Shown here piece after piece: positions 632 to 35,380 of a stretch of DNA of 64,000 nt. Below the pieces are notes generated by a model. It searched no databases, was not told where the DNA came from, and worked only from the letters and a program-made list of their open reading frames with translations. Both the position numbers and the translations under genes were made by a program. Each line of letters starts with the position of its first letter. Within the stretch, counting starts at the first letter, position 1. This stretch comes from an uncultured Gammaproteobacteria bacterium (GTDB lineage Bacteria > Pseudomonadota > Gammaproteobacteria > Pseudomonadales > Azotimanducaceae), in NCBI GenBank assembly GCA_963735085.1, contig CAVTJP010000005.1, forward strand, positions 1,213,001-1,277,000. The letters are read 5' to 3'.

Positions 632-1497
632 TGGGGGTGTCCTGATTCATCTGTGCTGCGCGGAGTCACTGCGCCGCCGAACTCGTCGGCAAGCTCGACC
701 GACCGCCGCGCGGCACCGTGTACCGCTTGCTTCACGAGCGACTTGCAGCCGCCCGCATCGAACATTGAAATGGCACGCTCAGTGGTACCCCCTGGGGATG
801 TCACATTGCGCCGCAGCACACTGGGGGATAGATCGCTTTCGTTAGCCATCACGGCGGCGCCATACGCAGTCTTTAGCGTCAACCTGCGTGCGGTTGCTTC
901 GTCGAGCCCGAGTTCGACGCCGGCTTCGATCATAGCCTCCATCAGGTAGAAGAAATAAGCCGGTCCGCTGCCCGAGACTGCGGTCACCGCGTCGATTGAC
1001 GATTCGTCTCGAACCCAGATGACGTCACCAACCGCCGAAAGAATCGACTCGGCGACACTGCGTTGCTGCTGCGTGGCACGGCTATTCGCGAACAGCGCCG
1101 TCACGCCGGCCCCATACAACGCCGGTGTATTTGGCATGCAGCGAACTATGCCTACAGGACACGAACACCAACTTGCTATGGCGGAACTTGGTACGCCCGC
1201 AGCAATGGAAATCAATAGCTGCGCCTCGCGTATCGAACTCTTCAGATGCTGGACGACGCGGCTCACCAATTGTGGTTTGACTGCCAACACGATCGATGTT
1301 GCGCCCTCGACGGCACGTTCATTTGCATCGATCGCTGCCACACCGAGCGCGGCCATGCTGGAGCGTTGGTCGGCATCCGGATCAGCGGCGACGATCGATG
1401 ACGCCGGAAAGCCGTGCCGCAGCAGACCTCCGACCAGGCAACGTGCCATGTTGCCCGCGCCGATGAACGCAACTCGCCCGTCCACCGCTTCAGCCAT
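628..1497 (-). CDS. proC: Pyrroline-5-carboxylate reductase
   Basis: N-terminal Rossmann motif VAFIGAGNMA and C-terminal SPGGTT motif typical of ProC. 4-nt overlap with yggT. Confidence 0.9.
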   Translation of the reverse strand: MAEAVDGRVAFIGAGNMARCLVGGLLRHGFPASSIVAADPDADQRSSMAALGVAAIDANERAVEGATSIVLAVKPQLVSRVVQHLKSSIREAQLLISIAAGVPSSAIASWCSCPVGIVRCMPNTPALYGAGVTALFANSRATQQQRSVAESILSAVGDVIWVRDESSIDAVTAVSGSGPAYFFYLMEAMIEAGVELGLDEATARRLTLKTAYGAAVMANESDLSPSVLRRNVTSPGGTTERAISMFDAGGCKSLVKQAVHGAARRSVELADEFGGAVTPRSTDESGHPQ

Positions 1498-2194
1498 CGG
1501 TGGTAGCCGCGGGGCGAGGCCCGAATATTGCCGTACCGATTCTGATCATCGTGGCACCTTCCTCGATCGCTATTTCAAAGTCCTGACTCATTCCCATCGA
1601 CAGCGTGTCCCAATGCAGCGCATTGGAGGGTTTCGCATCGTCGAACAAGATGCGCATACGGCGAAAGGCCTGACGTTGTGCCTCTGGGTCCGCGTGCGGT
1701 CGTGGAATTGCCATCAATCCGCGTACGCGCAGCCTCGGTAGATTCCGCAGCTGCGCGGAGAATTTTGCCAGAGCTTGCGGGACGATACCCGATTTCCGGG
1801 GCTCCTGATCGATATTGACCTGAATCAGGACGTTGAGAGGAACTGCATCTGCAGGGCGTTGCGCGGACAATCGGCGTGCAATCTTCTCGCGATCCAGTGT
1901 CTGTACCCATTGAAAGTGGCGCGCGATGTCTCGGGTCTTGTTCGATTGCACCGTCCCGATGAAATGCCAGTGCAACGGTACATCATGCAGTGCCTCGATT
2001 TTTGGAATCGATTCGTCGAGATAATTCTCGCCGATGTCGGCTATCCCGACGTTCGCCGCAGTGCGAATGGCGTCGCTGTCGCGCGTCTTCGACACCGCGA
2101 TCAGACACACAGAGTCCTGCTGACGACCGCTTCGTTGCGCGGCAAGAGCGATGCGGTTACGTATGTCTGCGACTTGGTTGCTGATCGAGTACAT
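1490..2194 (-). CDS. yggS: YggS family pyridoxal-phosphate homeostasis protein
   Basis: 234 aa with the LIAVSKT PLP-lysine motif and the HWHFIG / SMGMS motifs of the YggS/PROSC family. Overlaps the proC start. Confidence 0.9.
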   Translation of the reverse strand: MYSISNQVADIRNRIALAAQRSGRQQDSVCLIAVSKTRDSDAIRTAANVGIADIGENYLDESIPKIEALHDVPLHWHFIGTVQSNKTRDIARHFQWVQTLDREKIARRLSAQRPADAVPLNVLIQVNIDQEPRKSGIVPQALAKFSAQLRNLPRLRVRGLMAIPRPHADPEAQRQAFRRMRILFDDAKPSNALHWDTLSMGMSQDFEIAIEEGATMIRIGTAIFGPRPAATTDG

Positions 2195-2339
2195 GTTGCT
2201 TGTGTAGACGGCGTCGCAGTTTAGCGATGCGACATTCCCGCGTCATCCATATGCCATGTGCAACCGAAGGGGGAGGTAATACTATACAGGCCTCTCCATG
2301 GACTCTCTTTGCGGGGAGCGCGAGCAGAAAGGGACTGCT

Positions 2340-3374
2340 ATGGATATCACCGAACTGCTGGCTTTCAGTGCCAAACAAGGCGCATCCGACCTGCATCTAT
2401 CCGCGGGCTTACCGCCGATGATTCGAGTCGATGGTGACGTGCGACGCATCAATCTGCCGCCTCTCGAGCATCGCGAAGTTCACTCGCTTGTCTACGAGAT
2501 CATGAACGACAAGCAGCGCAAGGACTACGAGGAATTCCTGGAGACCGACTTCTCGTTCGAGGTGCCTGGTGTCGCGCGCTTCCGTGTCAATGCGTTCAAT
2601 CAGAATCGTGGCGCCGGGGCGGTGTTCCGAACCATTCCTTCCAAGGTACTGACGTTGGAAGACCTGAGCATGGGCCAGGTTTTCAAAGATATATCGATGG
2701 CGCCGCGAGGTCTCGTGCTTGTGACCGGGCCCACGGGTTCCGGCAAGAGTACGTCGATGGCCGCGATGGTCGACTTCATCAACGACAATCGCTATCAACA
2801 TATCCTGACGATCGAAGACCCGATCGAGTTCGTTCACGAGAGCAAGAAGTGTCTCGTCAACCAGCGCGAGGTCCACCGCGACACACATGGATTCTCCGAA
2901 GCGCTACGCGTTGCACTGCGGGAAGATCCGGACGTGATTCTCGTGGGTGAGATGCGTGACCTGGTGACCACGCGACTGGCGTTGACAGCTGCGGAAACCG
3001 GGCATCTTGTGTTCGCGACGCTGCATACGACATCGGCATCGAAGACTATCGACCGAATCATCGACCAGTTCCCTGCTGAAGAAAAAGACATGGTTAGGTC
3101 GATGCTGTCGGAGTCGCTACAGGCTGTGATTTCGCAGACGTTGCTCAAGCGCGTGAATGGCGGTCGCGTCGCAGCGCACGAGATCATGATCGCTACGCCG
3201 GCGATTCGTAACCTGATTCGCGAAGGCAAGGTTGCCCAGATGTACTCCGCCATTCAGACCAGCGCGGCAAATGGTATGCAGACGCTCGACCAATGTCTTC
3301 AGGGCTTGGTGCAGCGTCGCGTAATAGCTCGTGATACTGCGCGCGAGATTGCAAAAATCCCCGAGAGCTTCTGA
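2340..3374 (+). CDS. pilT: Type IV pilus retraction ATPase PilT
   Basis: Near-identical N-terminus to P. aeruginosa PilT (MDITELLAFSAKQGASDLHLSAGLPPMIRVDGDVRRI), Walker A GPTGSGKST, AIRNLIRE motif. Start moved to the ATG at 2340 inside the 2298 ORF. Confidence 0.95.
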   Translation: MDITELLAFSAKQGASDLHLSAGLPPMIRVDGDVRRINLPPLEHREVHSLVYEIMNDKQRKDYEEFLETDFSFEVPGVARFRVNAFNQNRGAGAVFRTIPSKVLTLEDLSMGQVFKDISMAPRGLVLVTGPTGSGKSTSMAAMVDFINDNRYQHILTIEDPIEFVHESKKCLVNQREVHRDTHGFSEALRVALREDPDVILVGEMRDLVTTRLALTAAETGHLVFATLHTTSASKTIDRIIDQFPAEEKDMVRSMLSESLQAVISQTLLKRVNGGRVAAHEIMIATPAIRNLIREGKVAQMYSAIQTSAANGMQTLDQCLQGLVQRRVIARDTAREIAKIPESF

Positions 3375-3382
3375 GGTGGCCC

Positions 3383-4525
3383 ATGGAGTTCGATAAGTTA
3401 CTCAAGCTGGTCGTCGAAAAAGGGGCATCCGACCTCTTCATCACCGCCGGACGCCCGCCAACGATCAAGATCAACGGCAAGTTGTTCGCCGCGTCGAAGA
3501 ATGCGCTCTCCCCGGAGCAGTCGCGGGAGCTCGTGCTCGGTGTGATGAATAAAGATCAACAGGATGCGTTCAAGCGCGATCACGAGTGCAACTTTGCGAT
3601 CAATACACGAGGCTTGGGTCGCTTTCGCGTCAGCGCATTCTATCAGCGCAATCTGATCGGCATGGTGTTGCGCCGTATCGAAGTGAACATTCCGAAGGTT
3701 GCCGAACTGGGGTTGCCGCCGGTCATCGAGCAACTTGCGATGACGAAGCGCGGCTTGATCATTTTCGTTGGCGCGACGGGAACTGGTAAGTCGACCTCGC
3801 TCGCCGCGATGATCGGCCATCGCAATGAAAACTCCACGGGCCACATCATCAGCATCGAGGACCCGATCGAATACGTCCACCAGCATCACGGCTGCATCAT
3901 CACGCAGCGTGAGGTGGGCATGGACACCGACAGTTTCGAAGTGGCGCTGAAGAACACGCTGCGTCAGGCGCCGGATGTCATCATGATCGGCGAGGTGCGT
4001 CAGCGGGAGACAATGGAATCCGCGGTTACGTTCGCAGAAACGGGGCACCTGTGCCTATGCACGTTGCACGCGAACAATGCCAACCAGGCGCTGGATCGAA
4101 TCATTCACTTCTTTCCAAGTGATCGGCATGACCAAATCTGGATGGACCTGTCGCTGAACCTGAAGGCGATCGTCGCACAGCAGCTCATTCCCACCGTCGA
4201 CGGTCAAGGACGCCGCGCGGCGGTCGAGGTTTTGATCAACACGCCGCTGATGGCAGACCATATTCGCAAGGGCGAAGTCCATCTGCTGAAGGAGCTGATG
4301 ACGAAATCCACGGAACTCGGCATGCAGACGTTCGACCAAGGTCTCTATCGTCTCTACAGTGCAGGCGAGATTTCTTATGACGCCGCTCTCACGCATGCCG
4401 ATTCGGCAAACGATCTACGATTGATGATCAAACTCGGCGCGGATGCCGGCGCCGGCGATGCGATGGATGCGGTAGGTAACCTGACGTTGGAAGACACCGA
4501 ATCCGCGTTCAGCTATCGACGCTAG
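3383..4525 (+). CDS. pilU: Type IV pilus ATPase PilU
   Basis: PilT paralogue (GATGTGKST Walker A, 380 aa with a C-terminal extension) immediately downstream of pilT, preceded by GAGGTGG. Confidence 0.9.
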   Translation: MEFDKLLKLVVEKGASDLFITAGRPPTIKINGKLFAASKNALSPEQSRELVLGVMNKDQQDAFKRDHECNFAINTRGLGRFRVSAFYQRNLIGMVLRRIEVNIPKVAELGLPPVIEQLAMTKRGLIIFVGATGTGKSTSLAAMIGHRNENSTGHIISIEDPIEYVHQHHGCIITQREVGMDTDSFEVALKNTLRQAPDVIMIGEVRQRETMESAVTFAETGHLCLCTLHANNANQALDRIIHFFPSDRHDQIWMDLSLNLKAIVAQQLIPTVDGQGRRAAVEVLINTPLMADHIRKGEVHLLKELMTKSTELGMQTFDQGLYRLYSAGEISYDAALTHADSANDLRLMIKLGADAGAGDAMDAVGNLTLEDTESAFSYRR

Positions 4526-4940
4526 CTGCGCTGTCGCCGGGTCGCGCGCCGAGGAAGGATTCCGCGATCAGTCGTGCGGCAACTGCGTGCTGCGCATCAA
4601 TGTCCCGACATAGCCCTCTAGCTTCAAAACTGGTCAGGCGCTCGTCGACCAGTTCCACCCTCATGCTATAGCGGGCGCCTAGACGCTTCGCGAACCGACT
4701 GGCACGGTTCGCCATCTCGCTGATCGTGCCGTCCATGTTCAACGGTAATCCGACCAGCAATACATCGGGTTGCCAGGTTTGTAGTACCGCGTCGACCGCA
4801 CGCCAATCAGGCATGCCGTCACGCGCACGCAGCGTCGTGACTTCTTGTGCGGTTTGCGTGACGGTCTGTCCGATGGCGACACCGATGTTGCGCAGTCCGA
4901 AGTCGAATGCGACCACGGTGTGCGGTTTGGTCACGGTCAC
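4509..4940 (-). CDS. ruvX: Holliday-junction resolvase-like nuclease RuvX (YqgF)
   Basis: 143 aa, VVAFDFGLRNIGVA and GLPLNMDGT motifs of the YqgF family. Its 3' end overlaps the pilU 3' end by 17 nt (convergent). Confidence 0.9.
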   Translation of the reverse strand: MTVTKPHTVVAFDFGLRNIGVAIGQTVTQTAQEVTTLRARDGMPDWRAVDAVLQTWQPDVLLVGLPLNMDGTISEMANRASRFAKRLGARYSMRVELVDERLTSFEARGLCRDIDAQHAVAARLIAESFLGARPGDSAASVDS

Positions 4941-5494
4941 GCGTGTCCGGCGTGGGTCGACATCAGGCGGAAGTCGATGCCGATGGATGCGGCAGCTTTG
5001 TTGACGCGCTGATCGAATGGCACATCGAACAGGATGTCGATATCCGCGGGACAGCTGAGCCAGGCGTTCTGCGACAGCTCAGCTTCCAGCTGGCCGCCGC
5101 CCCATCCAGCGTAGCCAAGCGCGACAACATAGCGGTGCGGGCCTTGCCCGGCGCCGATTGCCTCTAAGGTCTGGCGTGCGGTGCTGAGCATCAGGCCGTT
5201 GCCTAAGGTCAGGCTGGCGTCGTACTGCACCTCGTCGCTGTGCAGAATGAACCCGCGATCGGTTTTCACCGGACCACCTTCGAGTACGGGTTGTTTGGCA
5301 ATGTGCGTTGCACCGATCCCCAGTTGTTCGAGCAGTTCGGAGACACTCAGCCGCGTTGGCCGATTGACCATCAGGCCCATAGCGCCTTCCTCGTTGTGCT
5401 CACAGATATACGTGATGGTATTGCCGAAATACTCACCGACGAGGCCCGGCATTGCGAGCAGGAAGTGGTGCTTCAGACAAATATCGAGTGACAT
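4937..5494 (-). CDS. yqgE: YqgE/AlgH family (UPF0301) protein
   Basis: HHFLLAMPGL...YICEHNEEGAMGLMVNRP signature. Start placed at the internal ATG (MSLDICLK) because the longer ORF would overlap the upstream TonB gene. Confidence 0.85.
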   Translation of the reverse strand: MSLDICLKHHFLLAMPGLVGEYFGNTITYICEHNEEGAMGLMVNRPTRLSVSELLEQLGIGATHIAKQPVLEGGPVKTDRGFILHSDEVQYDASLTLGNGLMLSTARQTLEAIGAGQGPHRYVVALGYAGWGGGQLEAELSQNAWLSCPADIDILFDVPFDQRVNKAAASIGIDFRLMSTHAGHA

Positions 5495-5528
5495 GCGTGC
5501 GGAATCATAGCAGCTGCAGAGGTGCAGC

Positions 5529-6386
5529 TCAGGACGACGAGTAGTGATTCTTGCGGAACTCCCAGGTACGCACGATCTCGAGTACATCCGTGGATTGGCG
5601 CATTTGCTCAGGAAACGGTGCAAACGGCGCTGCCTGCCGAACGATGCGTATCGCAGCGTCGTCGAGCACCTTGAAGCCCGACGAATCGAGAATGCGGACA
5701 TCCTTGAGCGCGCCGTCCGGTGTAATCGATACCATAAGTCGTAAGCTGCCGTAGAGGCGCTCGCGACGCGCTTCTTCCGGATAATTCAGGTTCCCCACCG
5801 TCTCGACTTTACGACGCCAGGATTGCAGATAGTAGGCATCGACGGCCTGACGCGCCGAGACGCTGGTCAATCGGCGCACCCGCGGCGACTTGGCCTTGGT
5901 ATTGGTTTCGCTGTCGGGGCGTGCTTCGAGGCTTGCGATCTCCTGGCTCAAATCGAGCAGACGCTTTTGATCCGCTGGCGTTAGCCGTGGTTCTACCTTG
6001 GTTTGTGGGGCTTCGATCGTCGCTGTCTCTTCGCGAGCTGCCGACGTCGTCAACATGGCCTGCGATTCAACCTGAGGTTTTTCCTGCGCCGGATCGGATG
6101 CGACTTGGCGAAACGCACTATCGTGAAAATCCGCGGTCTCGGTGGTGGTGGTTTCGCGAACCTGCTCTGCGTCGCCACTGCCAAGCTGATTCGATTGTGC
6201 AAGGAAGTCCGGCTTGTCGGGTGCGATGCGATCGTCGTGCTGGGCTAGCGTGACCTCAACAGTGGGCGATCGAGCCTGATCCACGTGCCAGGCGAAGCCA
6301 ATCCCCAGAATCACTGCGGCATGAAGCGAGGCCGCGAGAAATACGGTAAATGACAACCGGTCTCGCGGAGTGATGACGGCATCCAT
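5529..6386 (-). CDS. TonB-family energy-transducer protein (TonB3-like position)
   Basis: N-terminal TM anchor, long Pro/Glu/Ala-rich spacer, and a C-terminal TonB fold signature (YPEEARRERLYGSLRLMVSITPDGALKDVRILDSSGFKVLDDAA). Lies between gshB and yqgE, as P. aeruginosa tonB3 does. Confidence 0.75.
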   Translation of the reverse strand: MDAVITPRDRLSFTVFLAASLHAAVILGIGFAWHVDQARSPTVEVTLAQHDDRIAPDKPDFLAQSNQLGSGDAEQVRETTTTETADFHDSAFRQVASDPAQEKPQVESQAMLTTSAAREETATIEAPQTKVEPRLTPADQKRLLDLSQEIASLEARPDSETNTKAKSPRVRRLTSVSARQAVDAYYLQSWRRKVETVGNLNYPEEARRERLYGSLRLMVSITPDGALKDVRILDSSGFKVLDDAAIRIVRQAAPFAPFPEQMRQSTDVLEIVRTWEFRKNHYSSS

Positions 6387-6408
6387 GATCGAGGTACTTT
6401 ACGTTGCC

Positions 6409-7404
6409 TTATGGGGCCGCATTGCGGCCGCCGGTGAGTTTTGCATCGATGCAGTCGACGAGTTTACCGGCTATGTCGAGGCCGAACTGTGTATCGAGTT
6501 CGCGAATGCAGGTTGGACACGTGACATTCACCTCGGTCAAATAATCGCCAATGATATCGATGCCGACGAAGTATAGCCCGCGTCGTACCAACTCCGGCCC
6601 GACTTGCTCGGTGATCCACCGGTCGCGCGCCGTTAACGGCCGACCCTCCCCCGTACCGCCCGCGGCGAGGTTACCGCGCGCCTCACCCTGCTTGGGAATC
6701 CGCGCGAGCGCATAGGGTATCGCCTCACCATCGACGATGAGAACGCGTTTGTCCCCCTGACTGATTTCGGGGATGAACTGCTGGGCCATGATGGGTCGTT
6801 CGCCATAGTGAGTCAGCGTTTCGATGACGACCGACAGGTTCGGATCGTCGTCCATCATGCGGAAGATCGACTCACCGCCCATCCCGTCGAGCGGCTTGAG
6901 CACAGTGCGTTTGTGTTGAGCGTGAAACGCGCGGATCACGTCGGCCCGACTCGATACGATCAAAGGCGGCCCGCATTGGGGGAACGCGGTTGCAAAGAAC
7001 TTCTCGTTGCAGTCGCGCAGGCTGCCTGGGCGATTCACCACCAACACGCCCTCGCTCTCCGCCCGCTCGAGCAAATAGGTAGTGTAGATATACTGCATGT
7101 CGAAAGGTGGATCCTTGCGCATGAAGATCACGTCAAACTCGCCGAGCGGACGGGCCACCTCCTCGCCTCGGCGATACCAGCCAGAACGCGCTGTTGCAGG
7201 ATCGAGCCGTTCAAGGAATTCGCCGTGCAACGCCAGGGTTCGCGTGAACGCGAACGGCTTGGCGTCCCGATAGAACAGGTCGCTCTGAGGACTGTAGTGA
7301 ACGTCCCACGCCCGTTGCTGGGCGGCGCGAATCATCGCGAGAGTACTGTCCTTTTTGAGGTTGAGTTCGTCGACGGGATCCATGACGAACAAAGCTTTTG
7401 TCAT
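6409..7404 (-). CDS. gshB: Glutathione synthetase
   Basis: ATP-grasp GshB. MTKALFVMDP...KKDSTLAMIRAAQ aligns with the E. coli GshB N-terminus. ATG at 7404 preferred over the TTG at 7413. Confidence 0.9.
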   Translation of the reverse strand: MTKALFVMDPVDELNLKKDSTLAMIRAAQQRAWDVHYSPQSDLFYRDAKPFAFTRTLALHGEFLERLDPATARSGWYRRGEEVARPLGEFDVIFMRKDPPFDMQYIYTTYLLERAESEGVLVVNRPGSLRDCNEKFFATAFPQCGPPLIVSSRADVIRAFHAQHKRTVLKPLDGMGGESIFRMMDDDPNLSVVIETLTHYGERPIMAQQFIPEISQGDKRVLIVDGEAIPYALARIPKQGEARGNLAAGGTGEGRPLTARDRWITEQVGPELVRRGLYFVGIDIIGDYLTEVNVTCPTCIRELDTQFGLDIAGKLVDCIDAKLTGGRNAAP

Positions 7405-10254: not shown

Positions 10255-13200
10255 ATGACCGAAAGCCGAGAACATTTTGCGCTGGACTGGATCAAGCGCG
10301 AGATCGACGAAACGCTGAAGTCAGCGCGTCAGGCACTGGAAGCCTACGCGGAGTCGGAGCGCGACGAAACGCGAATGCGTGCTTGTCTGACGTATCTGCA
10401 TCAAGTGCACGGCACTCTGTTGATGCTGGAGCTCACTGGGGTCACGGTCCTCAGCGACGAGATGGAACAACTCGCGCAGGCGCTACTCCATGGTTCGGTA
10501 GCGAACGTAGCTGATGCGCAACAGCTGTTGATGCAAGGCATTCTGCAGCTGCCGGCCTATCTGGAGGAAATCCAGAAAGGGCTGCCGGACTCGCGTCGCG
10601 CAGTACTCCCGCTTGCCAACGAGCTACGTGGGGCGCGGGGTGCCGAACGATTTCCGGATGCGGGGTCGCGTGCTGGTGTGTCACTTCATGGTACCGCGAC
10701 CAGCGAGACACTAAAGCGATTCGATCAGATCGATGGCACCGAAAAAGCACGGCGCATTCGCGCAGCCTATCAGCAGGTACTGTTGTCGGTTCTGAAGGGT
10801 GAAGGCTCACACAACGCGCTCGCGACGCTCGCTAAAGTCGCCGCCGGGCTCGAACGAATTTGCGAGAATACACCGTACACAGCACTGTGGCGCGCGTTCT
10901 CCGCGTTTGTCGCGGCACTCTCGGAAAGTAAGGCGCACCTGAGCGGAGATGTGGTGCGCTTGCTACGCCGCGTCGATGCAGAGATCAAGGCGCTTGCCCA
11001 AAATGGCGTCGCCGCGTTGACGCGGCCACTTTCGCTGGATCTCGTCAAGCAACTCGTCGATGCCGCGCGTGAGCATGGCAACACCGATCCGGACATCAAG
11101 TTACTGGGCGACGCGATTGCAGAGGAGCCCGCGGAGGATCGGGTCGCCATCTCGAAGCGCGAAGCCATACATACGGCTGCGGCTGCACTTCGCGAGGAAC
11201 TCGCGGCTGTAAAGGATTCGCTCGATCTGTTCGTTCGAAGCGATCCGCGCTCGACCGAGCAGCTTTTGCAGTTGACCGTGCCGCTGAAGCAGATTGGAAG
11301 CACTTTGTCGATCCTGGGGTTCGAGAGTTCACGCGCAGTGATCGCCGATCAGATCGAGGCGATGCAAGGCGCCGTTCAGGATGGCGCCTGCGACGAAGTA
11401 CTCCTTTTGGGGGTCGCGTCCGCACTGTTACAGGTGGACGAGAATTTAGCGGCGATTGCGAAGCAACGCGGTCGTATGAGCAGCACGCCGGACGCGTCCG
11501 GGCTGGTCAGTGAAGCACAAGTCGCAGTGTTGGGTGAAGCGCGCACCGGGCTCGACCAGATTAAGCAAGCTGTAGTCGACTATGTATCGGCGCAGTGGGA
11601 TCCGAGTCGTCTCGTCGACGTGCCCGCGTTGCTGTCGGCGGTGCAGGGCGCGCTCGCGATGGTAACGCTGGTGCGTCCGGCAGAACAGTTGGGCCGATGC
11701 GCGAAGTACGTCGCCAACGAACTCATTGCGGGGCGTGCGCCAGATTGGACCGGTCTTGATGCGTTCGCCGACGCTATCAGTGGAATCGACTACTACCTCG
11801 AACGATTTTGTGACGACCCGGCACAGCCAGGCGAGGAAATTCTGGGCGTCGTCGAGCGGAGTTTGGTACAGCTTGGATATGGGGAAGGTAGCGAACGTGC
11901 GCTGCGACCCGTCGAATTGCCTCCCATAGAGACCGTATCCGAATCTCCAATAGCCGCCGAGCCCGAGACATCCATTGATCCGGCTATGGAAGAAGCGCCG
12001 GCCGCGGTCCATACCGAGCCTGATAACGAAGAACCGAAGTTCGAAGAGGAAGCGCAGGAACTGCCTCTGGAAGCGGACCTTGCGGGTGACTTTGAACTCG
12101 TCGTCGAAGACCCGGACGAAGTATCGAGCGGTCCGGTGAGCGTTGATGAATTGGAAGACGACGCGTTCGACCTGGACGATCTGCAGCTTGGGTCTGATTC
12201 GAATCGCGCCGACGGCACCACGCCGCACCTCGAAGCGCCATCCTTCGCCCCTGCTGAATCGACCGATTTCAGTGACGAGGACTTGCAGACCATTGCCGAT
12301 GACGTGCCGGCGTCGCATGACGATCTCGAAGTCGAAGCACTTGCAAACACCCCGCGGCGTCAGATCGCCGAAGCCCCTACCGACATCGACGATGACATCC
12401 TCGAGATCTTCGTCGAAGAAGTTGGCGAGGTACTCGAGCGTGTCGATTTGTGGTTACCCCAATGGACGAGCGATTTCGCCAACGACGAAGCGCTTTTGGA
12501 GGTACGCCGTGCTTTCCACACGCTGAAAGGCAGCGGTCGTATTGTTGGCGCGAACCTCATCGGTGAGCTTGCCTGGTCGGTGGAAAACATGTTCAACCGG
12601 GTGATGGACGGCACCGTCGCACCGAACGCGCAAATTGGTAGCGTGGCTGGCGAGGCGAGATCAGCGATACCCGGCCTATGCCGGGCGTTCGAGAGTCGCC
12701 GGTCCATAGCCGATAGCCAAGTTGTAGGCATCATGGAAAGGGCGGATGTTCTGGCCTCGGGCGGCCGCCTCGAAGAACTCCTGGATGAGAGTTCGAGCCA
12801 AGTGATTCCACAGAGCGAAGCTGAAGATCGTTTTGCGATGTCGCAAACCGGCGATTCACCGGATTCTTCGGCGCAACTGAACAGACACAGTTCTGCCGAC
12901 GAAGCGGAGACGTTCGCGCTGTTCGAGCAGGAGGCAGCGCTACATCTAGCCGTACTGGAGGAGCGCTTCCAGCGAACGGATACAGCGGGCACAAATGCAC
13001 TGACAGACGATGTGGTGCGCGCGCTTCATACCCTGCGTGGCAGCGCGTCGATGGCAGGAGTAGACAGCGTGTCGGGCATCGCCGGGCCCCTCTACCGAGT
13101 CGTCAGTGAAGCGCGTGACGTCGGTATGCGTGCTGGTCCCGACATCATCGATTTCGTTCAGCAGGGCGTGTTCGCGCTGCGTCGCACGCTCAATGCCGTG

Positions 13201-29019: not shown

Positions 29020-30537
29020 ATGCTCGAACGCTACGTCAAAAAAATTCTCGCTTCGCGCGTTTACGACGTCGCAATAGAAACGCCGCTGCAGGAAGCGCGC
29101 TCGTTGTCCCGTGATGTGCGCAACCGGGTATTCCTGAAGCGCGAAGACCTGCAGAGCGTGTTCTCGTTCAAGCTGCGTGGAGCATACAACAAGATCGCGC
29201 AGCTCTCGCCCGAAGACCGTGCACTGGGCGTAATCTGCGCTTCGGCCGGCAACCACGCGCAGGGTGTCGCGCTGGCAGCCAGCCGGCTTGGCATTCGCGC
29301 GCACATCGTGATGGGGCGCAACACGCCGGAAATCAAGGTGGCGGCGGTTCGCGATCACGGCGCCAAGGTGATTCTGCACGGCGATAATTTCGACGACGCG
29401 CGTGATCATGCGATGCATCTGATGAATGAGCACGGCTACGTGTTCGTTCATCCGTTCGACGATGCCGACGTGATTGCCGGGCAGGGCACCATCGGGATGG
29501 AGATCCTGAATCAGCACAGCGCACCGCTGCATGCGATTTTCGTCCCTGTCGGTGGCGGCGGACTGATCTCCGGCATCGGCGCATACGTGAAATATCTGCG
29601 CAAGGACGTTCGGATCATCGGCGTCGAAGCCGATGGGTCTGCGTGCATGGCAGCGGCGTTGGAGGCGAATCGAAGGGTCGTACTGCCGACCGAGTCGCTG
29701 GATCAGTTCGCTGACGGAACCTCTGTGGCGCAGGTCGGGCGCGAGACATTTAAGATTGCTCGTCAGTGCGTGGACGAGGTGATCGTCGTATCCATCGATG
29801 AAATCTGCGCCGCGATCAAGGATATTTTCAACGACACCCGCTCGATTGCAGAGCCCTCCGGTGCGCTTGCGGTGGCAGGTTTGAAGAAGTACGTCAAAGC
29901 GTCCGGGCTGTCAGGACTGGATTTCGTCGCGATCGACAGCGGTGCGAATGTGAACTTCGATCGGTTGCGGCACATCTCGGAACGTTCCGCGGTTGGCGAG
30001 AAGCGTGAGGCGATTCTTGGCGTGACGATCCCAGAGCGCCCCGGCAGCTTTCGCAGTTTCTGCCGCACGCTCGGCAAGCGCGCGATCACCGAGTTCAACT
30101 ACCGCTATTCGGATGCGTCGAGCGCACGTGTCTATGTCGGCGTACAGATTGCTCCAAATGGTGATCGTGGTGAGTTGATCGCCAGTCTGACGCGCGCCGG
30201 TTATCCGGTTGAAGACATGACCGACAACGAACTGGCGAAACTGCATGTACGCCACATGGTCGGCGGGCGCACGATGAGCGGCAAGCCGGAAATTCTGTAT
30301 CGGTTCGAGTTTCCGGAACGCCCCGGCGCCCTGCTCGCGTTTCTGCTGGGCCTCGGCGAGAGCTGGAACATCACGATGTTTCACTACCGCAACCACGGCT
30401 CCGCCTGGGGGCGCGTATTGATTGGTTTCGAAGCCGGCGTGAAGGCGCGTCGTGAGCTGAATCGCTTTCTCGACCGCATCGGCTACCGCTATGCCGAAGA
30501 GACCGACAATTCAGCGTACCAGATGTTCTTACGTTGA
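29020..30537 (+). CDS. ilvA: Biosynthetic threonine dehydratase
   Basis: Collinear with E. coli IlvA, including the PLP lysine motif SFKLRGAY and the C-terminal ACT-like regulatory repeats. Confidence 0.95.
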   Translation: MLERYVKKILASRVYDVAIETPLQEARSLSRDVRNRVFLKREDLQSVFSFKLRGAYNKIAQLSPEDRALGVICASAGNHAQGVALAASRLGIRAHIVMGRNTPEIKVAAVRDHGAKVILHGDNFDDARDHAMHLMNEHGYVFVHPFDDADVIAGQGTIGMEILNQHSAPLHAIFVPVGGGGLISGIGAYVKYLRKDVRIIGVEADGSACMAAALEANRRVVLPTESLDQFADGTSVAQVGRETFKIARQCVDEVIVVSIDEICAAIKDIFNDTRSIAEPSGALAVAGLKKYVKASGLSGLDFVAIDSGANVNFDRLRHISERSAVGEKREAILGVTIPERPGSFRSFCRTLGKRAITEFNYRYSDASSARVYVGVQIAPNGDRGELIASLTRAGYPVEDMTDNELAKLHVRHMVGGRTMSGKPEILYRFEFPERPGALLAFLLGLGESWNITMFHYRNHGSAWGRVLIGFEAGVKARRELNRFLDRIGYRYAEETDNSAYQMFLR

Positions 30538-31283
30538 TAGTCAAGGCAATGCGAAAGCTGCCGCTCGATATCGAACTCGACGTGACGATGCGGCGCCAGC
30601 CGAACGAGACGACGTGCGGTCCGACCTGTCTGCACGCGGTGTACGACTACTATGAGGACGCCGCGTCGCTGGAGCAGGTGATTGCCGAAACGCAGACGAT
30701 CGAGAATGGTGGAACCTACGCGCCGTTTCTCGGCTGCCACGCATTGCAGCGTGGTTATGCGGCGACCTTGTATACCTGGGATCTGAAGGTCTTTGACCCG
30801 AGCTGGTTCGTCCCCGATGCACCGCCGCTGGCGGATCGGCTGATGCGGCAGGCCGAGTTCAAGGAGGATCGCCGCGTGCGCGTGGTGTCGCGCGCGTGCC
30901 GTGAATTCCTCCAGCTCGGCGGCATGATTCGATTTCGCGATCTCACCGCGCCGTTCGTACGCGGCATTTTGCGTCGGGGGATTCCGATGCTGGCAGGATT
31001 GAGTTCGACGTATCTGTATCGCGCGCGTCGCGAGTTCGGAGACGACGACAAGCCCGATGACGTGCGTGGCGAGCCGGCCGGACACTTCGTCGTACTGTCC
31101 GGCTACCACCGCCGTGATCGGCTGGTCCGCGTCAGCGATCCGTATCGCGCGAATCCGGTGTCGACGGAAGTGCATTATTGGGTGAACATCAACCGGCTCA
31201 TCTCGTCGGTGCTGCTCGGTAACCTGACGTTTGATGCGAATATTCTGTTGATCACACAACGCAATGGAGTCGGCGACCTTTGA
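30534..31283 (+). CDS. Papain-fold (C39-like) cysteine peptidase family protein
   Basis: QPNETTCGPTC (Cys28), GHFVVLSGY (His184) and SDPY (Asp202) form a C39-like catalytic arrangement. The TTG start overlaps the ilvA TGA; the ATG at 30549 is the alternative. Confidence 0.6.
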   Translation: MIVKAMRKLPLDIELDVTMRRQPNETTCGPTCLHAVYDYYEDAASLEQVIAETQTIENGGTYAPFLGCHALQRGYAATLYTWDLKVFDPSWFVPDAPPLADRLMRQAEFKEDRRVRVVSRACREFLQLGGMIRFRDLTAPFVRGILRRGIPMLAGLSSTYLYRARREFGDDDKPDDVRGEPAGHFVVLSGYHRRDRLVRVSDPYRANPVSTEVHYWVNINRLISSVLLGNLTFDANILLITQRNGVGDL

Positions 31284-32755
31284 ACCTGCTGTTCGTGGTC
31301 AATAATCCGAAGGACTGGCTGCTCGAAATTCCCGGCGTCACCGTCGTGCCCGCTCGGGCCTATCTGACCGATGCGCAGTACTTCGAGGACCGCTCTGCAC
31401 GCGTGTTCAATCTGTGCCGGTCGTACAAATATCAGAGCGCCGGATATTACGTTTCGTTGCTCGCGTCAGCGCGCGGCCATCATCCCTTGCCGAGCCTGTC
31501 GACGATTCAGGATCTGCGTTCCCCCGGCGTCGCCCGGTTGTTGTCCGAGGACCTCGATGAACTGATGCAACGGACACTGAAGCCGCTGGGCGTCTCGCTG
31601 TTTTCGATGAACATCTATTTTGGCCGCAGCGGGAATCCCGCCTACGACAAGCTCGCGTGGAATCTCTTCGGCATCTTCGAAACGCCGCTGCTGCGCGCAG
31701 ATTTCGTCTTGCGCGACGCGGAGTGGCAACTGAGAGCGATCCGCGCAATAGATGCCAGCGATGTGCAGGCGAGCGACCATGATTTCCTGCTCGCCGCAGC
31801 CGGCGATTATTTCTCCGGTAAGCGGCGCCGTGTGCGCCGGCGTCCTCAGTCGCGCTACGACCTCGCGATCCTGCACGATCCTGCCGAGGTCGAGCCGCCG
31901 TCTGACAAGAAGGCCCTCGAGCGCTTCGAAGACGCCGCCGAAGGGCTCGGCTTCGGCGTCGAGTTCATCACCAAGGACGATGTCGGCAGGGTTGCGGAGT
32001 TCGATGGCCTGTTCATTCGCGAGACGACCGCTGTCAACCACCACACATTCCGCATTGCGCGCCGCGCAGAGGCGGAGGGGCTGGTCGTCATCGACGATTC
32101 GAACTCGATTCTGAAATGCACCAACAAGGTGTATCTCGCGGAACTGCTGACCCGGCACAAAATTGCGTGCCCGAAAACGCTCGTCGTTCACGCGGAGAAC
32201 ATCGACGACATCGTGCCGAGCCTGGGCCTGCCGGTCGTATTGAAGCAACCGGATAGCGCATTCTCGAAGGGCGTTACCAAGGTGGAAACCGAAGACGCCA
32301 TGCGTGCAACGGTCAAGGAGATGCTTGCGCAATCTGAACTGATCGTCGCGCAGGCGTTTCTGCCAACGGATTTCGACTGGCGCGTAGGCATACTCGACGG
32401 TCGGCCGCTGTACGTTTGCAAATACTTCATGGCAAGGCGGCATTGGCAGATCATTCGTCGCGATGAGTCTGGCGAGACCACGGTCGAAGGCAACTGCAAG
32501 ACGTTCGCCGTTGGCGAAGCGCCGAAGGACGTAATTCAAATGGCCCTGAAGGCGGCCAATCTGATTGGTGACGGACTGTACGGTGTCGATCTGAAGGAGG
32601 TTGGCGGTCAGCCTTCCATCATCGAGGTCAACGACAACCCCAGCATCGACACCGGTTACGAAGACGCGGTTCTGAAGGGTGTGCTGTATCGTGAGGTCAT
32701 GAGCGTGTTCCTGCAACGCATCGAAGCCAAGAAGCGCGGACGCTCGCCGACTTGA
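31280..32755 (+). CDS. RimK-type ATP-grasp ligase with N-terminal RLAN-like domain
   Basis: 491 aa. The C-terminal half has RimK/GshB-like ATP-grasp motifs (VVLKQPDSAFSKGV, DWRVGILDGRPLY, YGVDLKEV...IIEVNDNP). The N-terminal ~190 aa resembles the RimK-like ATP-grasp N-terminal domain. The TTG start overlaps the upstream TGA. Confidence 0.8.
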   Translation: MNLLFVVNNPKDWLLEIPGVTVVPARAYLTDAQYFEDRSARVFNLCRSYKYQSAGYYVSLLASARGHHPLPSLSTIQDLRSPGVARLLSEDLDELMQRTLKPLGVSLFSMNIYFGRSGNPAYDKLAWNLFGIFETPLLRADFVLRDAEWQLRAIRAIDASDVQASDHDFLLAAAGDYFSGKRRRVRRRPQSRYDLAILHDPAEVEPPSDKKALERFEDAAEGLGFGVEFITKDDVGRVAEFDGLFIRETTAVNHHTFRIARRAEAEGLVVIDDSNSILKCTNKVYLAELLTRHKIACPKTLVVHAENIDDIVPSLGLPVVLKQPDSAFSKGVTKVETEDAMRATVKEMLAQSELIVAQAFLPTDFDWRVGILDGRPLYVCKYFMARRHWQIIRRDESGETTVEGNCKTFAVGEAPKDVIQMALKAANLIGDGLYGVDLKEVGGQPSIIEVNDNPSIDTGYEDAVLKGVLYREVMSVFLQRIEAKKRGRSPT

Positions 32756-33987
32756 GCGAACCATTTCACGCAGCATTTTCAGTATTCGGTATCGAGATCG
32801 AATACATGATCGTCGATCGTACGACGCTCGACGTGGCACCTCTGTCGGACCGTTTGCTCACGGCGGCTGCCGGTGAACTGACACAGGAGACCGAGCAGGG
32901 CGAAATTTCGTGGAGCAATGAACTCGCGCTGCACGTCATCGAGACGAAGACCAACGGTCCGAAGCCGCGCCTCGACGAGGTTGTCGGCGATTTTCAGGCG
33001 GCCGTCCGCCACATCAATTCGTTGCTCGAACCATGGAACGGCTGTCTGATGCCTGGCGGTGCACATCCCTGGATGAATCCGGATCGCGATACGAAGCTAT
33101 GGCCGCACGGCGACGACGCGATCTACCGCGCGTACGACCGGATCTTCGGCTGCCAGGGTCACGGCTGGTCGAATCTGCAAAGCGTCCATATCAACCTGCC
33201 GTTTCGCGACGACACGGAGTTCGGCCGTTTGCATAGCGCCGTGCGCTGTGTGCTGCCGCTGCTGCCCGGGCTCGCGGCAAGCACGCCGTTTCTGGATGGC
33301 CGCAGCACGGGGCTGGCAGATGCGCGCATCGATGCATACGCGCGCAATCAACGGCGCGTCCCGTCGATCACCGGCCGCATCATTCCAGAGGCGGTGCGAT
33401 CGGAGAGCGAATACGCGCAACGCATCCTCGAACCGATGTTTCGCGACATTGCGCCGCATGACCCCGACGGCATCCTTGCGTTCGAATGGCTGAATTCGCA
33501 TGGCGCAATCGCGCGCTTCGATCGCCACGCGATTGAGATTCGGCTGATCGATACGCAAGAGCAACCCGGCGCTGATCTGGCGATTGCGGCGTTGGTCGTC
33601 GCGGTTGTCGAACGGCTTTATCGAGGTCCGGTGGCGACGTTGTCGGCGGCCGATGCGCTCGATACCGGTGTGCTCGCCGACATCCTGCGACGCTGTGTCG
33701 AGCGTGGCGAAAATGCGCTGATCGACGATGCGGACTATCTCCGGGTGCTGGGAATCTCGGAGCGATCACTCGATGCAGGCGCCGTGTGGCGATCGCTTGC
33801 CGAGGCTACGCAGGCACACATCGCGCCGCATCGAAATGCGCTGGATGTGATTCTGCGAGAAGGCACATTGGCGACCCGGTTGCTGCGCAGTGTCGGGGCG
33901 CGCGTCGATGCGGCCGCGTTACGCTCGACCTATCGACGCCTGTGCGACTGCCTCGCACATGGTCGCATGTTTCATGCGCAAGCGTGA
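32752..33987 (+). CDS. GCS2 (YbdK-like) carboxylate-amine ligase family protein
   Basis: FGIEIEYMIVD N-terminal motif and overall length typical of glutamate-cysteine ligase family 2. The TTG start overlaps the upstream TGA. Confidence 0.8.
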   Translation: MSEPFHAAFSVFGIEIEYMIVDRTTLDVAPLSDRLLTAAAGELTQETEQGEISWSNELALHVIETKTNGPKPRLDEVVGDFQAAVRHINSLLEPWNGCLMPGGAHPWMNPDRDTKLWPHGDDAIYRAYDRIFGCQGHGWSNLQSVHINLPFRDDTEFGRLHSAVRCVLPLLPGLAASTPFLDGRSTGLADARIDAYARNQRRVPSITGRIIPEAVRSESEYAQRILEPMFRDIAPHDPDGILAFEWLNSHGAIARFDRHAIEIRLIDTQEQPGADLAIAALVVAVVERLYRGPVATLSAADALDTGVLADILRRCVERGENALIDDADYLRVLGISERSLDAGAVWRSLAEATQAHIAPHRNALDVILREGTLATRLLRSVGARVDAAALRSTYRRLCDCLAHGRMFHAQA

Positions 33988-34037
33988 CCTGCAGAGCCGC
34001 TGATCGAGAATAGCGGGATGCCACTAGCGGCTTGCGC

Positions 34038-34577
34038 TCAGGCGTCCCCAGCCACATAACGCAGGTATTCCTCTTCGAACACGAGTTTGGTTGGGTCGTC
34101 CATCCGGTCGATATACAGTACGCCGTCGAGATGATCGAATTCGTGCTGGAACACCGTTGCAAGAAAATCCTTCAATTCCAGTTCGTGCGCGGCTCCTGTG
34201 AGATCCTGATAGCTGACGCGGACGAATTGTGGACGCTCGACGAAGCCGCGCATCCCTGGCACCGACAGGCAACCCTCCCAATAGCCCCGCGCCTGGGGAT
34301 CGACCACCTCGACGCGCGGATTGACGAAAACCGTCAATGGCATCGATTCGATATCACCGTAGCGGCTCGGGCCGCCTGGAATCTGGATGATCGCGAGACG
34401 CAACGATTCGTCGATCTGCGGCGCCGCGAGGCCAATGCCGCCGGAGTCGTGCAGCGTATCGACCATATCTTTGACGAGCCGCGCGGTTTCCGGATTGCGC
34501 AGGTCATCCGACGTCAGTGGCCGCGCGGCCCTGCGCAATGTCGGGTGGCCCATGCGAATGATTTTGCGGACGGCCAT
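34038..34577 (-). CDS. def: Peptide deformylase
   Basis: GIGLAAPQ, EGCLSVPG and HEFDHLDG metal-binding motifs. ATG at 34577 with a GGAGA SD. Starts 1 nt after the upstream stop. Confidence 0.9.
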   Translation of the reverse strand: MAVRKIIRMGHPTLRRAARPLTSDDLRNPETARLVKDMVDTLHDSGGIGLAAPQIDESLRLAIIQIPGGPSRYGDIESMPLTVFVNPRVEVVDPQARGYWEGCLSVPGMRGFVERPQFVRVSYQDLTGAAHELELKDFLATVFQHEFDHLDGVLYIDRMDDPTKLVFEEEYLRYVAGDA

Positions 34578-34578
34578 T

Positions 34579-35190
34579 TCAGGAGGTCTCCGAAGCTGCA
34601 AAGAAGCGGCGCCCGCGTATCGTAAACCCTCTAGCGGCGCGCTCGGTGATCACGGCGTCGAGCGGAACGTCCCACGTCTGGTGCTGTAGTACGGGGTGGT
34701 GTTGCAGTTCGTGCCCGATTCCGATCAGCAGAGGGTAGCGCCGTGTTGCGAACGTTGCGTCATAGTAACCGCCACCGCGCCCGAGTCGGTTGCCGGCGTC
34801 ATCGAATGCGACCAGCGGCATCAATACAACGTCGAGGATGCGTGCGGACATCGGCCGGGCGAGCCGCGTATCCGGCTCGGCAATGCCGAATCGATTTCGA
34901 ACGAACGATGTATCGTCGTCGTAGCGATAGAAATCCAGCTGCCGTGAGCGTTCGACCACCGGCAACGCGACGACCTTGTTCGCCGCGAGCAGGTGAGCAG
35001 TGATCGGGCTCGGGTCGATTTCGCCATCGCTTGCCAGATATACCGCGAAGCGCCGGCAAGTCAGCATCAGCCGCGATGTCGCGAAGCGCCGCGCAACGGC
35101 GCGCGCGTGTTCGCTTTGTTGCTTCGGCGTGAGCGCACGCCGCGCGGCGCGATAGCGCCTGCGCAGTGACGCGCGTGACGGTGGATCCAT
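34579..35190 (-). CDS. ygfA: 5-formyltetrahydrofolate cyclo-ligase
   Basis: 203 aa MTHFS family (LGRGGGYYD, DVPLDAVITE). Located immediately downstream of the 6S RNA, as E. coli ygfA is. Confidence 0.8.
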   Translation of the reverse strand: MDPPSRASLRRRYRAARRALTPKQQSEHARAVARRFATSRLMLTCRRFAVYLASDGEIDPSPITAHLLAANKVVALPVVERSRQLDFYRYDDDTSFVRNRFGIAEPDTRLARPMSARILDVVLMPLVAFDDAGNRLGRGGGYYDATFATRRYPLLIGIGHELQHHPVLQHQTWDVPLDAVITERAARGFTIRGRRFFAASETS

Positions 35191-35197
35191 ACTAAAA

Positions 35198-35380
35198 GAA
35201 TCTCCCGGAGGTGCCGCTGTTCGGTTTGCCCTGAACCGTATTGGTTCAAGGCGGAGACCCGAGCGACGTCATAGGCTTCCCGCGTGAGCGGACCTGCGCA
35301 CAGACGCCAACGTCAAAGTCTCCTTAGTTACTATAACGGCTCAAGGACGACCCCGACTGGCGAACACCCCAGGAGACGCA
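35198..35380 (-). ncRNA. ssrS: 6S RNA (RNA polymerase sigma70-holoenzyme regulator)
   Basis: The reverse complement reads GUCUCCUGGGGUGUUCGCCAGUCGGGGUCGUCCUUGAGCC...CCUUGAACCAAUACGGUUCAGGG...CGGCACCUCCGGGAGAUUC. It aligns by eye with the E. coli 6S 5' and 3' arms (…GAGAUGUUCGCAAGCGGGCCAGUCCCCUGAGCC… / …CCUUGAACCAAGGGUUCAAGGG…GGCAUCUCGGAGAUUC). Conserved zapA-ssrS-ygfA synteny supports it. Ends are +/- 5 nt. Confidence 0.85.

Follow-up and report, generated by a model that had tools for sequence, protein, structure and literature searches.

The 64,000-nucleotide stretch of DNA analysed here (the window), from an uncultured gammaproteobacterium of the Azotimanducaceae (contig CAVTJP010000005.1, positions 1,213,001 to 1,277,000), carries directly downstream of the threonine ammonia-lyase gene ilvA a cassette of three genes, encoding a C39-like papain-fold cysteine peptidase, a RimK-type ATP-grasp ligase with an extra N-terminal RLAN domain, and a divergent GCS2-type carboxylate-amine ligase. 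The three open reading frames (ORFs) had been placed directly after ilvA in an earlier reading of the letters (the original prediction), and this placement agreed with the ORF list. The cassette was found to be conserved in gene order and strand across many phyla. We propose, tentatively and with somewhat less than even confidence, that it is a self-contained cytoplasmic module that would make and trim a short gamma-glutamyl/alpha-glutamyl peptide, following the logic of glutathione and phytochelatin.

Conservation was analysed in the best 80 of at least 600 genome matches to the ATP-grasp protein (one genome per species), covering more than 10 phyla (Gammaproteobacteria, Betaproteobacteria including Thiobacillus, Nitrosomonas and Gallionella, Desulfobulbales, Planctomycetota, Verrucomicrobiota, Bacteroidota, Nitrospirota, Acidobacteriota, Fibrobacterota, Spirochaetota, and others). 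Gene order was scored by tblastn with the window proteins, and the denominators are the informative loci. In 65 of 78 loci the C39-like peptidase gene immediately precedes the ATP-grasp gene, and in 60 of 71 the GCS2 gene is located downstream of the latter. The order peptidase, ATP-grasp and GCS2, tightly spaced on one strand as in the window, is typical of the relatives, and the co-conservation of the trio that the original prediction had left to be checked was thus borne out. After GCS2, a gene for an FGase-type amidohydrolase (PF05013), overlooked by the original prediction, was detected in 36 of 52 loci, with no such gene in 16 of 52. Judged from these neighbourhoods, the canonical cassette usually consists of four genes with FGase as the fourth. 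The median identity to the window proteins was 52% for the peptidase, 56% for ATP-grasp and 50% for GCS2, and that of FGase was 49%. Homologues of the ATP-grasp protein were 53-96% identical across phyla (53-86% for the best 80 loci); the ATP-grasp query gave a significant match to each of the 8000 candidate protein clusters that were scored, the top 120 clusters at 60% identity or more, and a search with the RLAN domain against 1.84 billion representative proteins gave 795 hits (50%-level representatives). In Legionella adelaidensis NCTC12735, the cassette genes on 'plasmid 27' (L086, 41-3232) are annotated in RefSeq as 'RimK family protein', 'glutamate-cysteine ligase family protein' and 'N-formylglutamate amidohydrolase'; this 9-kb record also carries fur, bamE and dapF, and resembles a chromosome fragment rather than a plasmid.

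No FGase homologue was detected anywhere in the window. The gene (about 690 bp; 12709-13397 in L001) is present in the three closest relatives, L001 to L003, which are metagenome-assembled genomes (MAGs) of closely related Pseudomonadales. By blastn, the alignment of the window with L001 ends precisely at the GCS2 stop and picks up again about 5 nt short of the stop of def, the next gene, leaving a difference of about 690 bp. Since L001-L003 and most phyla have FGase, the window lineage has lost it by a recent clean deletion, and represents a natural three-gene variant. In L001, the 3' end of def overlaps the 3' end of FGase.

The original prediction took the physical coupling to threonine dehydratase as a possible hint at a substrate derived from 2-oxobutyrate or branched-chain amino acids. 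Besides the window, however, only L001-L003 were found to have ilvA immediately before the cassette. Pfam scans of the nearest neighbours (73 upstream and 66 downstream) hit 97 and 49 families, respectively, none of them in more than three loci, and the only family that reached three was ilvA, in the same three MAGs. The hint is not sustained, since the adjacency is limited to these close relatives and the flanks elsewhere are unrelated; the attachment of ilvA is a local accident, incidental to the cassette. The gene is probably co-transcribed with the cassette while standing outside its conserved part. A functional link to ilvA was rejected; the other members of the ilvA cluster were cysteine synthases. 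All-against-all ORF clustering suffered from shadow ORFs of high-GC genomes and was treated as a lead only. In a Gallionellaceae MAG (L010, 1507-8509), a true ilvA precedes a stand-alone RLAN-ATP-grasp gene by 4 kb, and a gene for a LonC-like protease lies between them on the opposite strand; this proximity, the only one outside the clade of the window, is probably coincidental.

The domain assignments of the original prediction were upheld by profile searches. The peptidase matched Pfam Peptidase_C39_2 (PF13529; 2.6e-10, 41.5 bits against a cut-off of 24) and Peptidase_C39 (PF03412; 2e-5, 24.9 bits against 22), placing it among the C39-like proteins of clan CA. The proposed catalytic residues Cys28 (30615-30617), His184 (31083-31085) and Asp202 (31137-31139) correspond to real codons, and are invariant in 33 homologues together with the oxyanion residue Gln22 (30597-30599). 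The AlphaFold2 (AF2) model, with a predicted local distance difference test score (pLDDT) of 85, showed a papain fold with a helical insert of about 60 residues. In Foldseek searches, the model matched at template-modelling (TM) scores of about 0.45-0.5 the C39 domains of PCAT1, LahT and ComA, and also the C39-like 3erv, xylellain and the pseudomurein endoisopeptidase PeiR; a further match was the glutathione-cleaving primitive phytochelatin synthase Alr0975. One peptidase homologue only gave a hit, below threshold, to the Phytochelatin Pfam family. The enzyme does not have the organisation of bacteriocin-processing C39 peptidases of the PCAT or ComA type, being a stand-alone protein of 244 aa with no conserved gene for an ATP-binding cassette (ABC) transporter or precursor in the 80 loci. 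Its N-terminus is not signal peptide-like.

The second protein consists of an RLAN domain (PF14401; residues 25-171, 2.8e-45, 154 bits against a cut-off of 25), N-terminal to a domain that matched Pfam RimK (PF08443; residues 282-457, 1.2e-8, 35.2 bits against 21). The likeness to RimK is at the domain level only: the scores stayed below the cut-offs of both the RimK family model TIGR00768 (63.3 against 143.4) and the S6--L-glutamate ligase model NF007764 (30.6 against 331). The Mg/ATP motif Asp437, Glu449 and Asn451 (D...E-x-N) is intact, as checked at the codon level, and invariant in the homologue alignment, and the alignment to the RimK structures 7qyr and 5zct spans G-V-D and E-V-N-x-x-P. 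The closest relatives in the PDB by sequence and fold were RimK, LysX and ArgX; the AF2 model used here, built from 15 sequences, is poor (pLDDT 57), and its Foldseek hits are reliable for the RimK/LysX-like core only, not for RLAN. Alignments of RLAN revealed the invariant polar residues N44, C46, Y49, Y51, Q52, R65, H67, D78 and R86. A profile of 28 RLAN sequences detected nothing meaningful among PDB sequences, and no relation of RLAN to the N domain of cyanophycin synthetase (CphA1) was detectable (hhalign probability 0.2%).

The third protein matched Pfam GCS2 (PF04107; residues 12-288, 2.6e-25, 89.8 bits against a cut-off of 21), the match including the N-terminal G-x-E-x-E strand, and residues E15 and E17 were invariant in 28 homologues. 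All nine models of named families (TIGR02050, NF010039-45 and TIGR02048) scored below cut-off, the best being that of the YbdK family (60.7 against 176.4), and the GCS2 profile gave weak matches only in the PDB, to plant-type glutamate-cysteine ligase (0.004) and YbdK (0.012). The window GCS2 appears to belong to a distinct subfamily, for which cysteine is a candidate substrate. To our knowledge, all characterised members of GCS2 (YbdK and plant-type glutamate-cysteine ligase) act on free amino acids. Since none of the three cassette proteins reaches any curated NCBIfam cut-off, they are classified here as superfamily members and not as any named equivalog.

The original prediction also described the junctions from ilvA to GCS2 as identical TTGA tetranucleotides, in each of which a TGA stop overlaps a TTG start, and deduced from them strict translational coupling and fixed stoichiometry. 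The tetranucleotide is present at all three positions, 30534-30537, 31280-31283 and 32752-32755, but a credible start-stop overlap was found only at the latter two. At the ilvA/peptidase junction, L001-L003 carry CTGATG, in which the ATG and the stop have one base in common, versus TTGATA in the window, where the TTG at 30534 arises from a synonymous CGC-to-CGT change in the last Arg codon of ilvA. The ancestral overlapping ATG has been lost in the window. No Shine-Dalgarno-like sequence was found upstream of this first TTGA, and in the alignment ATG 30549 corresponds to the second ATG of L001. This ATG, 11 nt past the ilvA stop, is the most likely start of the peptidase, because the TTG is not conserved, because an identical public protein (P0121) is 244 aa long, that is, starts at this ATG, and because peptidase homologues are 233-245 aa in length. 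The gap of 11 nt is close enough for co-transcription and, probably, for re-initiation too.

The second overlap is supported by the alignment of 15 ATP-grasp homologues from residue 1, by the call of L001 (a 96%-identical relative) at the same TTG, and by a GGAG motif that ends 10 nt upstream of TTG 31280. Across the loci, the junction between peptidase and ATP-grasp is an NTGA overlap at -4 in 21 of 69, and an overlap of any kind in 39 of 69. At the junction between ATP-grasp and GCS2, the start codon lies at -4 in 42 of 68 loci. Here no in-frame start codon other than TTG 32752 lies upstream of the strand G-I-E-I-E-Y-M, which precedes the Met in 117 of 120 GCS2 homologues and is covered by the Pfam match from residue 12. 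The public GCS2 calls for this genome (P0241) and for L001 (P0242), both of 393 aa, begin at an internal ATG. As TTG 32752 is the only start before the conserved motif, and as the Pfam match begins at residue 12, both calls are N-terminal truncations that lose the conserved G-I-E-I-E-Y strand (window 32752-32808), the true start being TTG 32752.

The use of TTG is specific to the lineage, and the identity of the three junctions is not a general feature: ATG and GTG are dominant at the overlaps, most relatives carrying one of them at -4, and TTG is a minority (3 loci between peptidase and ATP-grasp, 4 loci between ATP-grasp and GCS2). An NTG that overlaps a TGA stop arises easily by chance, since every third base of the last codon except C yields one. 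The degree to which overlaps and gene order are conserved across phyla goes beyond chance. Translational coupling is reasonable for the three cassette genes because their tight or overlapping junctions are conserved (42 of 68 and 39 of 69 loci); the TTG between ilvA and the peptidase is not conserved and is probably unused, and fixed stoichiometry reads more into coupling than it can give. Inside the operon, neither promoter-like nor terminator-like sites were detected beyond chance.

Sister systems differ in the second amide-forming enzyme. On plasmid p1 of Azospirillum brasilense Sp7 (L084, 4763-7470), a fusion of GNAT and DUF3335 (C39-like) ends at the start of the ATP-grasp gene; the RLAN-ATP-grasp protein of this strain is 44% identical to that of the window, and GCS2 is absent there. 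Two single-polypeptide fusions, P0465 (646 aa) and P0506 (664 aa), have the architectures GNAT-RLAN-ATP-grasp and RLAN-ATP-grasp-GNAT. As such fusions exist, GNAT is predicted to be functionally tied to the RLAN ligase; and as the sister versions swap GCS2 for GNAT, the constant core is the papain-like enzyme together with RLAN-ATP-grasp, the second amide-forming enzyme being either GCS2 or GNAT. A review of papain-like enzymes merely mentions DUF3335-GNAT fusions (PMC10318531). In Pseudomonas aeruginosa (L083, 5908-7497), a stand-alone RLAN-ATP-grasp protein of 529 aa, 44% identical and annotated as 'RimK family alpha-L-glutamate ligase', is encoded in a chromosome-like region, convergent with an Orn/Lys/Arg-decarboxylase-like gene; ggt and glutamate/aspartate ABC transporter genes are located a few kb away, and pagP lies in the region. 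No functional literature was found on this P. aeruginosa homologue.

Genes of thiol and gamma-glutamyl metabolism recur in the flanks. A cysteine synthase gene was found near the cassette in L004, L022 (12244-13740), L023 (1638-2612) and L069 (4808-5740), that of L022 encoding an unusual CysK-glutaredoxin fusion of 498 aa. A gamma-glutamyltransferase gene is located directly upstream in L004 (flank genes 1255-6909) and near the cassette in L042 (1-648), and a YafJ/EgtC-type class-II amidotransferase gene was observed in L007 (5205-6095), L008 (1262-2119), L056 and L063 (both at about 10440-11296). These make at least 6 independent adjacencies versus fewer than 1 expected, on a rough estimate, not a formal test, that took each locus to have about 12 flanking genes and each of the genes in question to be present in 1-2 copies per genome.

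In the pathway that we tentatively favour, the peptide would be built from common amino acids by neither the ribosome nor a nonribosomal peptide synthetase. GCS2, with ATP, would activate a carboxylate, most likely the gamma-carboxyl of glutamate, and join it to the amine of a second amino acid, for which cysteine is the leading candidate, giving a gamma-glutamyl dipeptide. RLAN-ATP-grasp would then phosphorylate the free alpha-carboxylate and add L-glutamate, possibly several times, with the RLAN domain binding the substrate or the partner enzymes. The C39-like enzyme would form an acyl-enzyme on Cys28, resolved by hydrolysis or by acyl transfer to another amine as in phytochelatin synthase, BtrH and CtaG. 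In the relatives only, FGase-type amidohydrolase would free the C-terminal N-acyl-linked glutamate, reversing the second step; the window lacks the gene. Ubiquitous substrates and an intracellular product are proposed because no conserved gene for a transporter, regulator, carrier protein or precursor was found among the nearest flanking genes. For a precursor ORF there is no room inside the overlapping cassette, and the flanks were not systematically searched for very small ORFs. We found no paper that assigns a product, substrate or function to RLAN or to such cassettes, in agreement with the original prediction.

A small peptide is suggested by the small-molecule relatives of GCS2 and FGase (the FGase family being named for a small-molecule N-acyl-glutamate hydrolase), by the swap with GNAT, by the thiol genes in the flanks, and by the fold match to Alr0975. 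A precedent is closthioamide biosynthesis, where an ATP-grasp enzyme has been shown to cooperate with a papain-fold transacylase of the C39/BtrH-like type (PMC7183216). Several observations weigh against the small peptide. The closest relatives of the ATP-grasp enzyme by sequence and fold are protein-modifying, the target of RimK being ribosomal protein S6 and that of LysX/ArgX the carrier LysW, and identity above 50% across phyla is unusually high for small-molecule enzymes. The GNATs of the sister systems are RimI-like (85.2 bits for that of Azospirillum, against a RimI cut-off of 86.4), and RimI acetylates the protein N-terminus. The enrichment of thiol genes comes from few loci and a rough background estimate, and the likeness between the peptidase and phytochelatin synthase is at the level of the shared fold only (TM about 0.44). 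About one in eight of the sampled loci (about 13%) carry RLAN-ATP-grasp with no partner genes nearby, as does the P. aeruginosa homologue.

Some of these observations would fit better with reversible post-translational glutamylation, RimK/RimB-like, of a protein encoded elsewhere, the main rival to the small peptide and one that we regard as unlikely though serious. Here RLAN would dock the target, alpha-linked glutamate would be added to the protein C-terminus or to a branch, GCS2 would initiate a branch at the gamma-carboxyl of a side chain or of the C-terminus, in the manner of PafA with Pup, and the C39-like peptidase (with FGase in the relatives) would trim the tail. The best relatives of the ligase, RimK, LysX and ArgX, act on protein C-terminal glutamates; it has been established by experiment that a RimK ligase is encoded together with a protease that trims the tail (PMC7343187, PMC11957791); and GCS2-superfamily ligases such as PafA can ligate proteins (PMC2588565). 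Stand-alone RLAN-ATP-grasp genes exist, as rimK does, and conservation across phyla is very high with no linked substrate gene. The RimI-like GNAT partners (85.2 against 86.4 bits) point the same way, although a RimI-like top hit is common among generic small GNATs. The target protein is, however, hypothetical, characterised GCS2 and FGase enzymes act on small molecules, and the genes that recur nearby belong to the metabolism of cysteine and gamma-glutamyl compounds rather than to ribosomes or proteostasis.

Two unlike ligases with dedicated hydrolases in a self-contained module are also, as is generally known, the logic of cyanophycin synthetase and cyanophycinase. In a branched poly-amino-acid reserve of that type, the RimK-type enzyme would build a backbone of poly-alpha-glutamate, to whose gamma-carboxyls GCS2 would attach an amine or amino acid; cleavage of the polymer would fall to the cysteine peptidase, and that of the fragments to FGase. 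RimK does make poly-alpha-L-glutamate in vitro, stimulated by its protease partner (PMC11957791). We nevertheless consider the reserve improbable: RLAN is not detectably related to the polymer-tethering N domain of cyanophycin synthetase (hhalign 0.2%), and similarity to the cyanophycin synthetase model is confined to the generic ATP-grasp core. An exported bioactive peptide, either a ribosomally synthesised and post-translationally modified peptide with C39 leader cleavage or a thiotemplated product like closthioamide or butirosin, might be thought of, since C39 peptidases classically cut double-glycine leaders, the fold matches include PCAT1, LahT and ComA, and a pair of ATP-grasp and C39/BtrH-like transacylase makes closthioamide (PMC7183216). 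This is very improbable, as no conserved ABC transporter fusion, precursor gene, peptidyl carrier protein (PCP), decarboxylase or exporter stands beside the cassette, the overlapping genes leave no space for a precursor ORF, and the peptidase has no signal peptide-like N-terminus. The fixed gene content and high conservation across phyla are, in addition, unlike those of diversifying secondary-metabolite clusters, and neither defence-model nor phage hits were obtained.

A bolder proposal, quite unlikely on present evidence, is that the cassette serves the synthesis and turnover of an unrecognised low-molecular-weight thiol or iso-phytochelatin-like peptide, such as gamma-Glu-Cys-Glu or (gamma-Glu-Cys)n-Glu. 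GCS2 would be the gamma-Glu-Cys ligase, RLAN-ATP-grasp would add the C-terminal Glu, the C39-like enzyme would be a phytochelatin-synthase-like transpeptidase, and FGase would remove the terminal Glu. The hosts of the cassette include Planctomycetota, Nitrospirota, Desulfobulbales, nitrifiers, and iron and sulfur oxidisers, in several of which the thiol buffer is poorly known.

The features of the locus are listed in Table 1. Between 28237 and 36700 of the window, ilvA, the cassette and def are located between rpiA and a block of ygfA, ssrS, zapA and zapB. The serA-rpiA and ygfA-ssrS-zapA(-zapB) genes are close neighbours in E. coli-like genomes, and the ilvA-cassette-def segment looks like an insertion into this conserved synteny block. 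The 6S RNA gene ssrS was the sole Rfam match near the cassette; it is flanked by the 5-formyltetrahydrofolate cyclo-ligase gene and zapA, as is usual in gammaproteobacteria. No compositional anomaly was found at the cassette. A role in defence was rejected, PADLOC giving no model match to known anti-phage systems for any of the four cassette proteins, and so was phage origin, tblastn against phages giving no hits. The plasmid matches to the cassette were to chromids or chromosome-like records.

Table 1. Positions in the window of the cassette, its junctions and its neighbours
Feature	Position	Strand	Basis
ilvA, biosynthetic threonine ammonia-lyase	29020-30537	+	PALP and two Thr_dehydrat_C domains; TIGR01124, 754 bits
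First TTGA, ilvA stop TGA with TTG, probably unused as a start	30534-30537	+	CTGATG in relatives; length of P0121; no Shine-Dalgarno sequence
Peptidase ORF, 249 aa as opened	30534-31283	+	ORF list
C39-like papain-fold cysteine peptidase or transacylase, 244 aa from ATG 30549	30549-31283	+	Pfam, invariant residues, AF2 model
TTGA overlap, peptidase/ATP-grasp	31280-31283	+	-4 overlap in relatives
RLAN and RimK-type ATP-grasp ligase, 491 aa	31280-32755	+	Pfam
RLAN domain, aa 25-171	31352-31792	+	boundaries from Pfam match
ATP-grasp catalytic region, aa 238-461	31991-32662	+	alignment to RimK structures 7qyr and 5zct
TTGA overlap, ATP-grasp/GCS2	32752-32755	+	sole in-frame start before GIEIEYM
Divergent GCS2/YbdK-type carboxylate-amine ligase, 411 aa	32752-33987	+	Pfam GCS2, residues 12-288
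Short spacer, deletion scar of the fourth cassette gene	33988-34037		blastn against L001
def, peptide deformylase, convergent with the cassette	34038-34601	-	ORF list
6S RNA (ssrS)	35198-35378	-	Rfam RF00013, 95 bits

The instance in the window itself adds little, its ilvA linkage and TTG starts being local features, but the system represents a real gap in knowledge. The module is widespread (at least 600 genome matches and 795 RLAN representatives), with a median identity of 49-56% across phyla, yet it is without a substrate, product or phenotype in the literature, and it unites in one module two ATP-dependent amide ligases that differ in mechanism and one or two hydrolases. Its solution would define a bacterial code of protein glutamylation, a reserve polymer of a new kind, or a new metabolite in the form of a small peptide, perhaps a thiol. 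The comparative data, namely the core of four genes, the exchange of GCS2 for GNAT, the neighbours of thiol and gamma-glutamyl metabolism and the natural variants without FGase, point to Glu, Cys and gamma-Glu-Cys as the first candidate substrates.

Among known systems, RimABK, in which RimK and RimB are involved in polyglutamylation of ribosomal protein S6 in Pseudomonas (PMC7343187, PMC11957791, PMC10092738), resembles the cassette in that a RimK-family ligase with the conserved ATP-grasp motif is co-encoded with a protease, which in RimABK removes glutamates. The window ligase differs by its extra RLAN of 180 aa and its score on the RimK equivalog model (30.6 against 331 bits); its protease is a papain-fold Cys enzyme as opposed to a retropepsin, a second ligase of the GCS2 type is present, and RimA is absent. 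The same three folds are employed in glutathione and phytochelatin synthesis (GCS2-type glutamate-cysteine ligase, ATP-grasp glutathione synthetase and Alr0975), here within one operon; the fold match to Alr0975 and the recurrence of cysteine synthase, gamma-glutamyltransferase and EgtC-like genes in the flanks add to this likeness. In contrast to these enzymes, the window GCS2 scores far below all glutamate-cysteine ligase cut-offs, the ATP-grasp enzyme is RimK-type instead of GshB-type, and the peptidase is C39-like, the Phytochelatin Pfam hit being sub-threshold and restricted to one homologue. Closthioamide CtaD/CtaG and butirosin BtrJ/BtrH likewise pair an ATP-grasp ligase with a C39/BtrH-like papain-fold transacylase having a Cys-His-Asp triad (PMC7183216). 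These systems, however, are PCP-thiotemplated and employ a pyridoxal phosphate-dependent decarboxylase, and neither family recurs in the flanks of the 80 loci.

Cyanophycin synthetase and cyanophycinase also combine two ATP-dependent amide-forming activities with peptidases, and a non-catalytic N-terminal domain precedes the RimK-like ATP-grasp in both systems. RLAN is not detectably related to the CphA1 N domain, however, the second ligase is a separate GCS2-type protein as opposed to the Mur-ligase-type M domain, and only the ATP-grasp core was matched by the cyanophycin synthetase model TIGR02068 (17.3 bits against 850). N-Acetyl dipeptides are reportedly made by GNAT and RimK-type ligase in the N-acetylglutaminylglutamine amide (NAGGN) system (the Ngg/AsnO/peptidase trio, TIGR03103) and in that of mammalian N-acetylaspartylglutamate (NAAG; NAT8L and RIMKLA). 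The sister cassettes with GNAT show the same logic of capping, then adding Glu, together with a hydrolase. The window differs from the NAGGN system in using the ATP-dependent GCS2 instead of an acetyl-CoA enzyme, and the Azospirillum GNAT scored 34 bits on the Ngg model against a cut-off of 569.

Neighbourhoods of RLAN-ATP-grasp amidoligases with COOH-NH2 ligases, GNATs and peptidases are said to have been predicted by Iyer, Abhiman, Burroughs and Aravind in 2009. According to the original prediction, such neighbourhoods had only been predicted by comparative genomics; we likewise place the cassette with that previously predicted kind, and no functional study was found. The same RLAN and RimK-like ATP-grasp are reportedly joined there by the same kinds of partners, GCS2 or GNAT, a papain-like peptidase, and FGase, whereas the window is without FGase, uses TTG overlap starts, and stands behind ilvA. 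The window cassette is an already-predicted kind of system, with the missing FGase and the TTG overlap starts as its own features.

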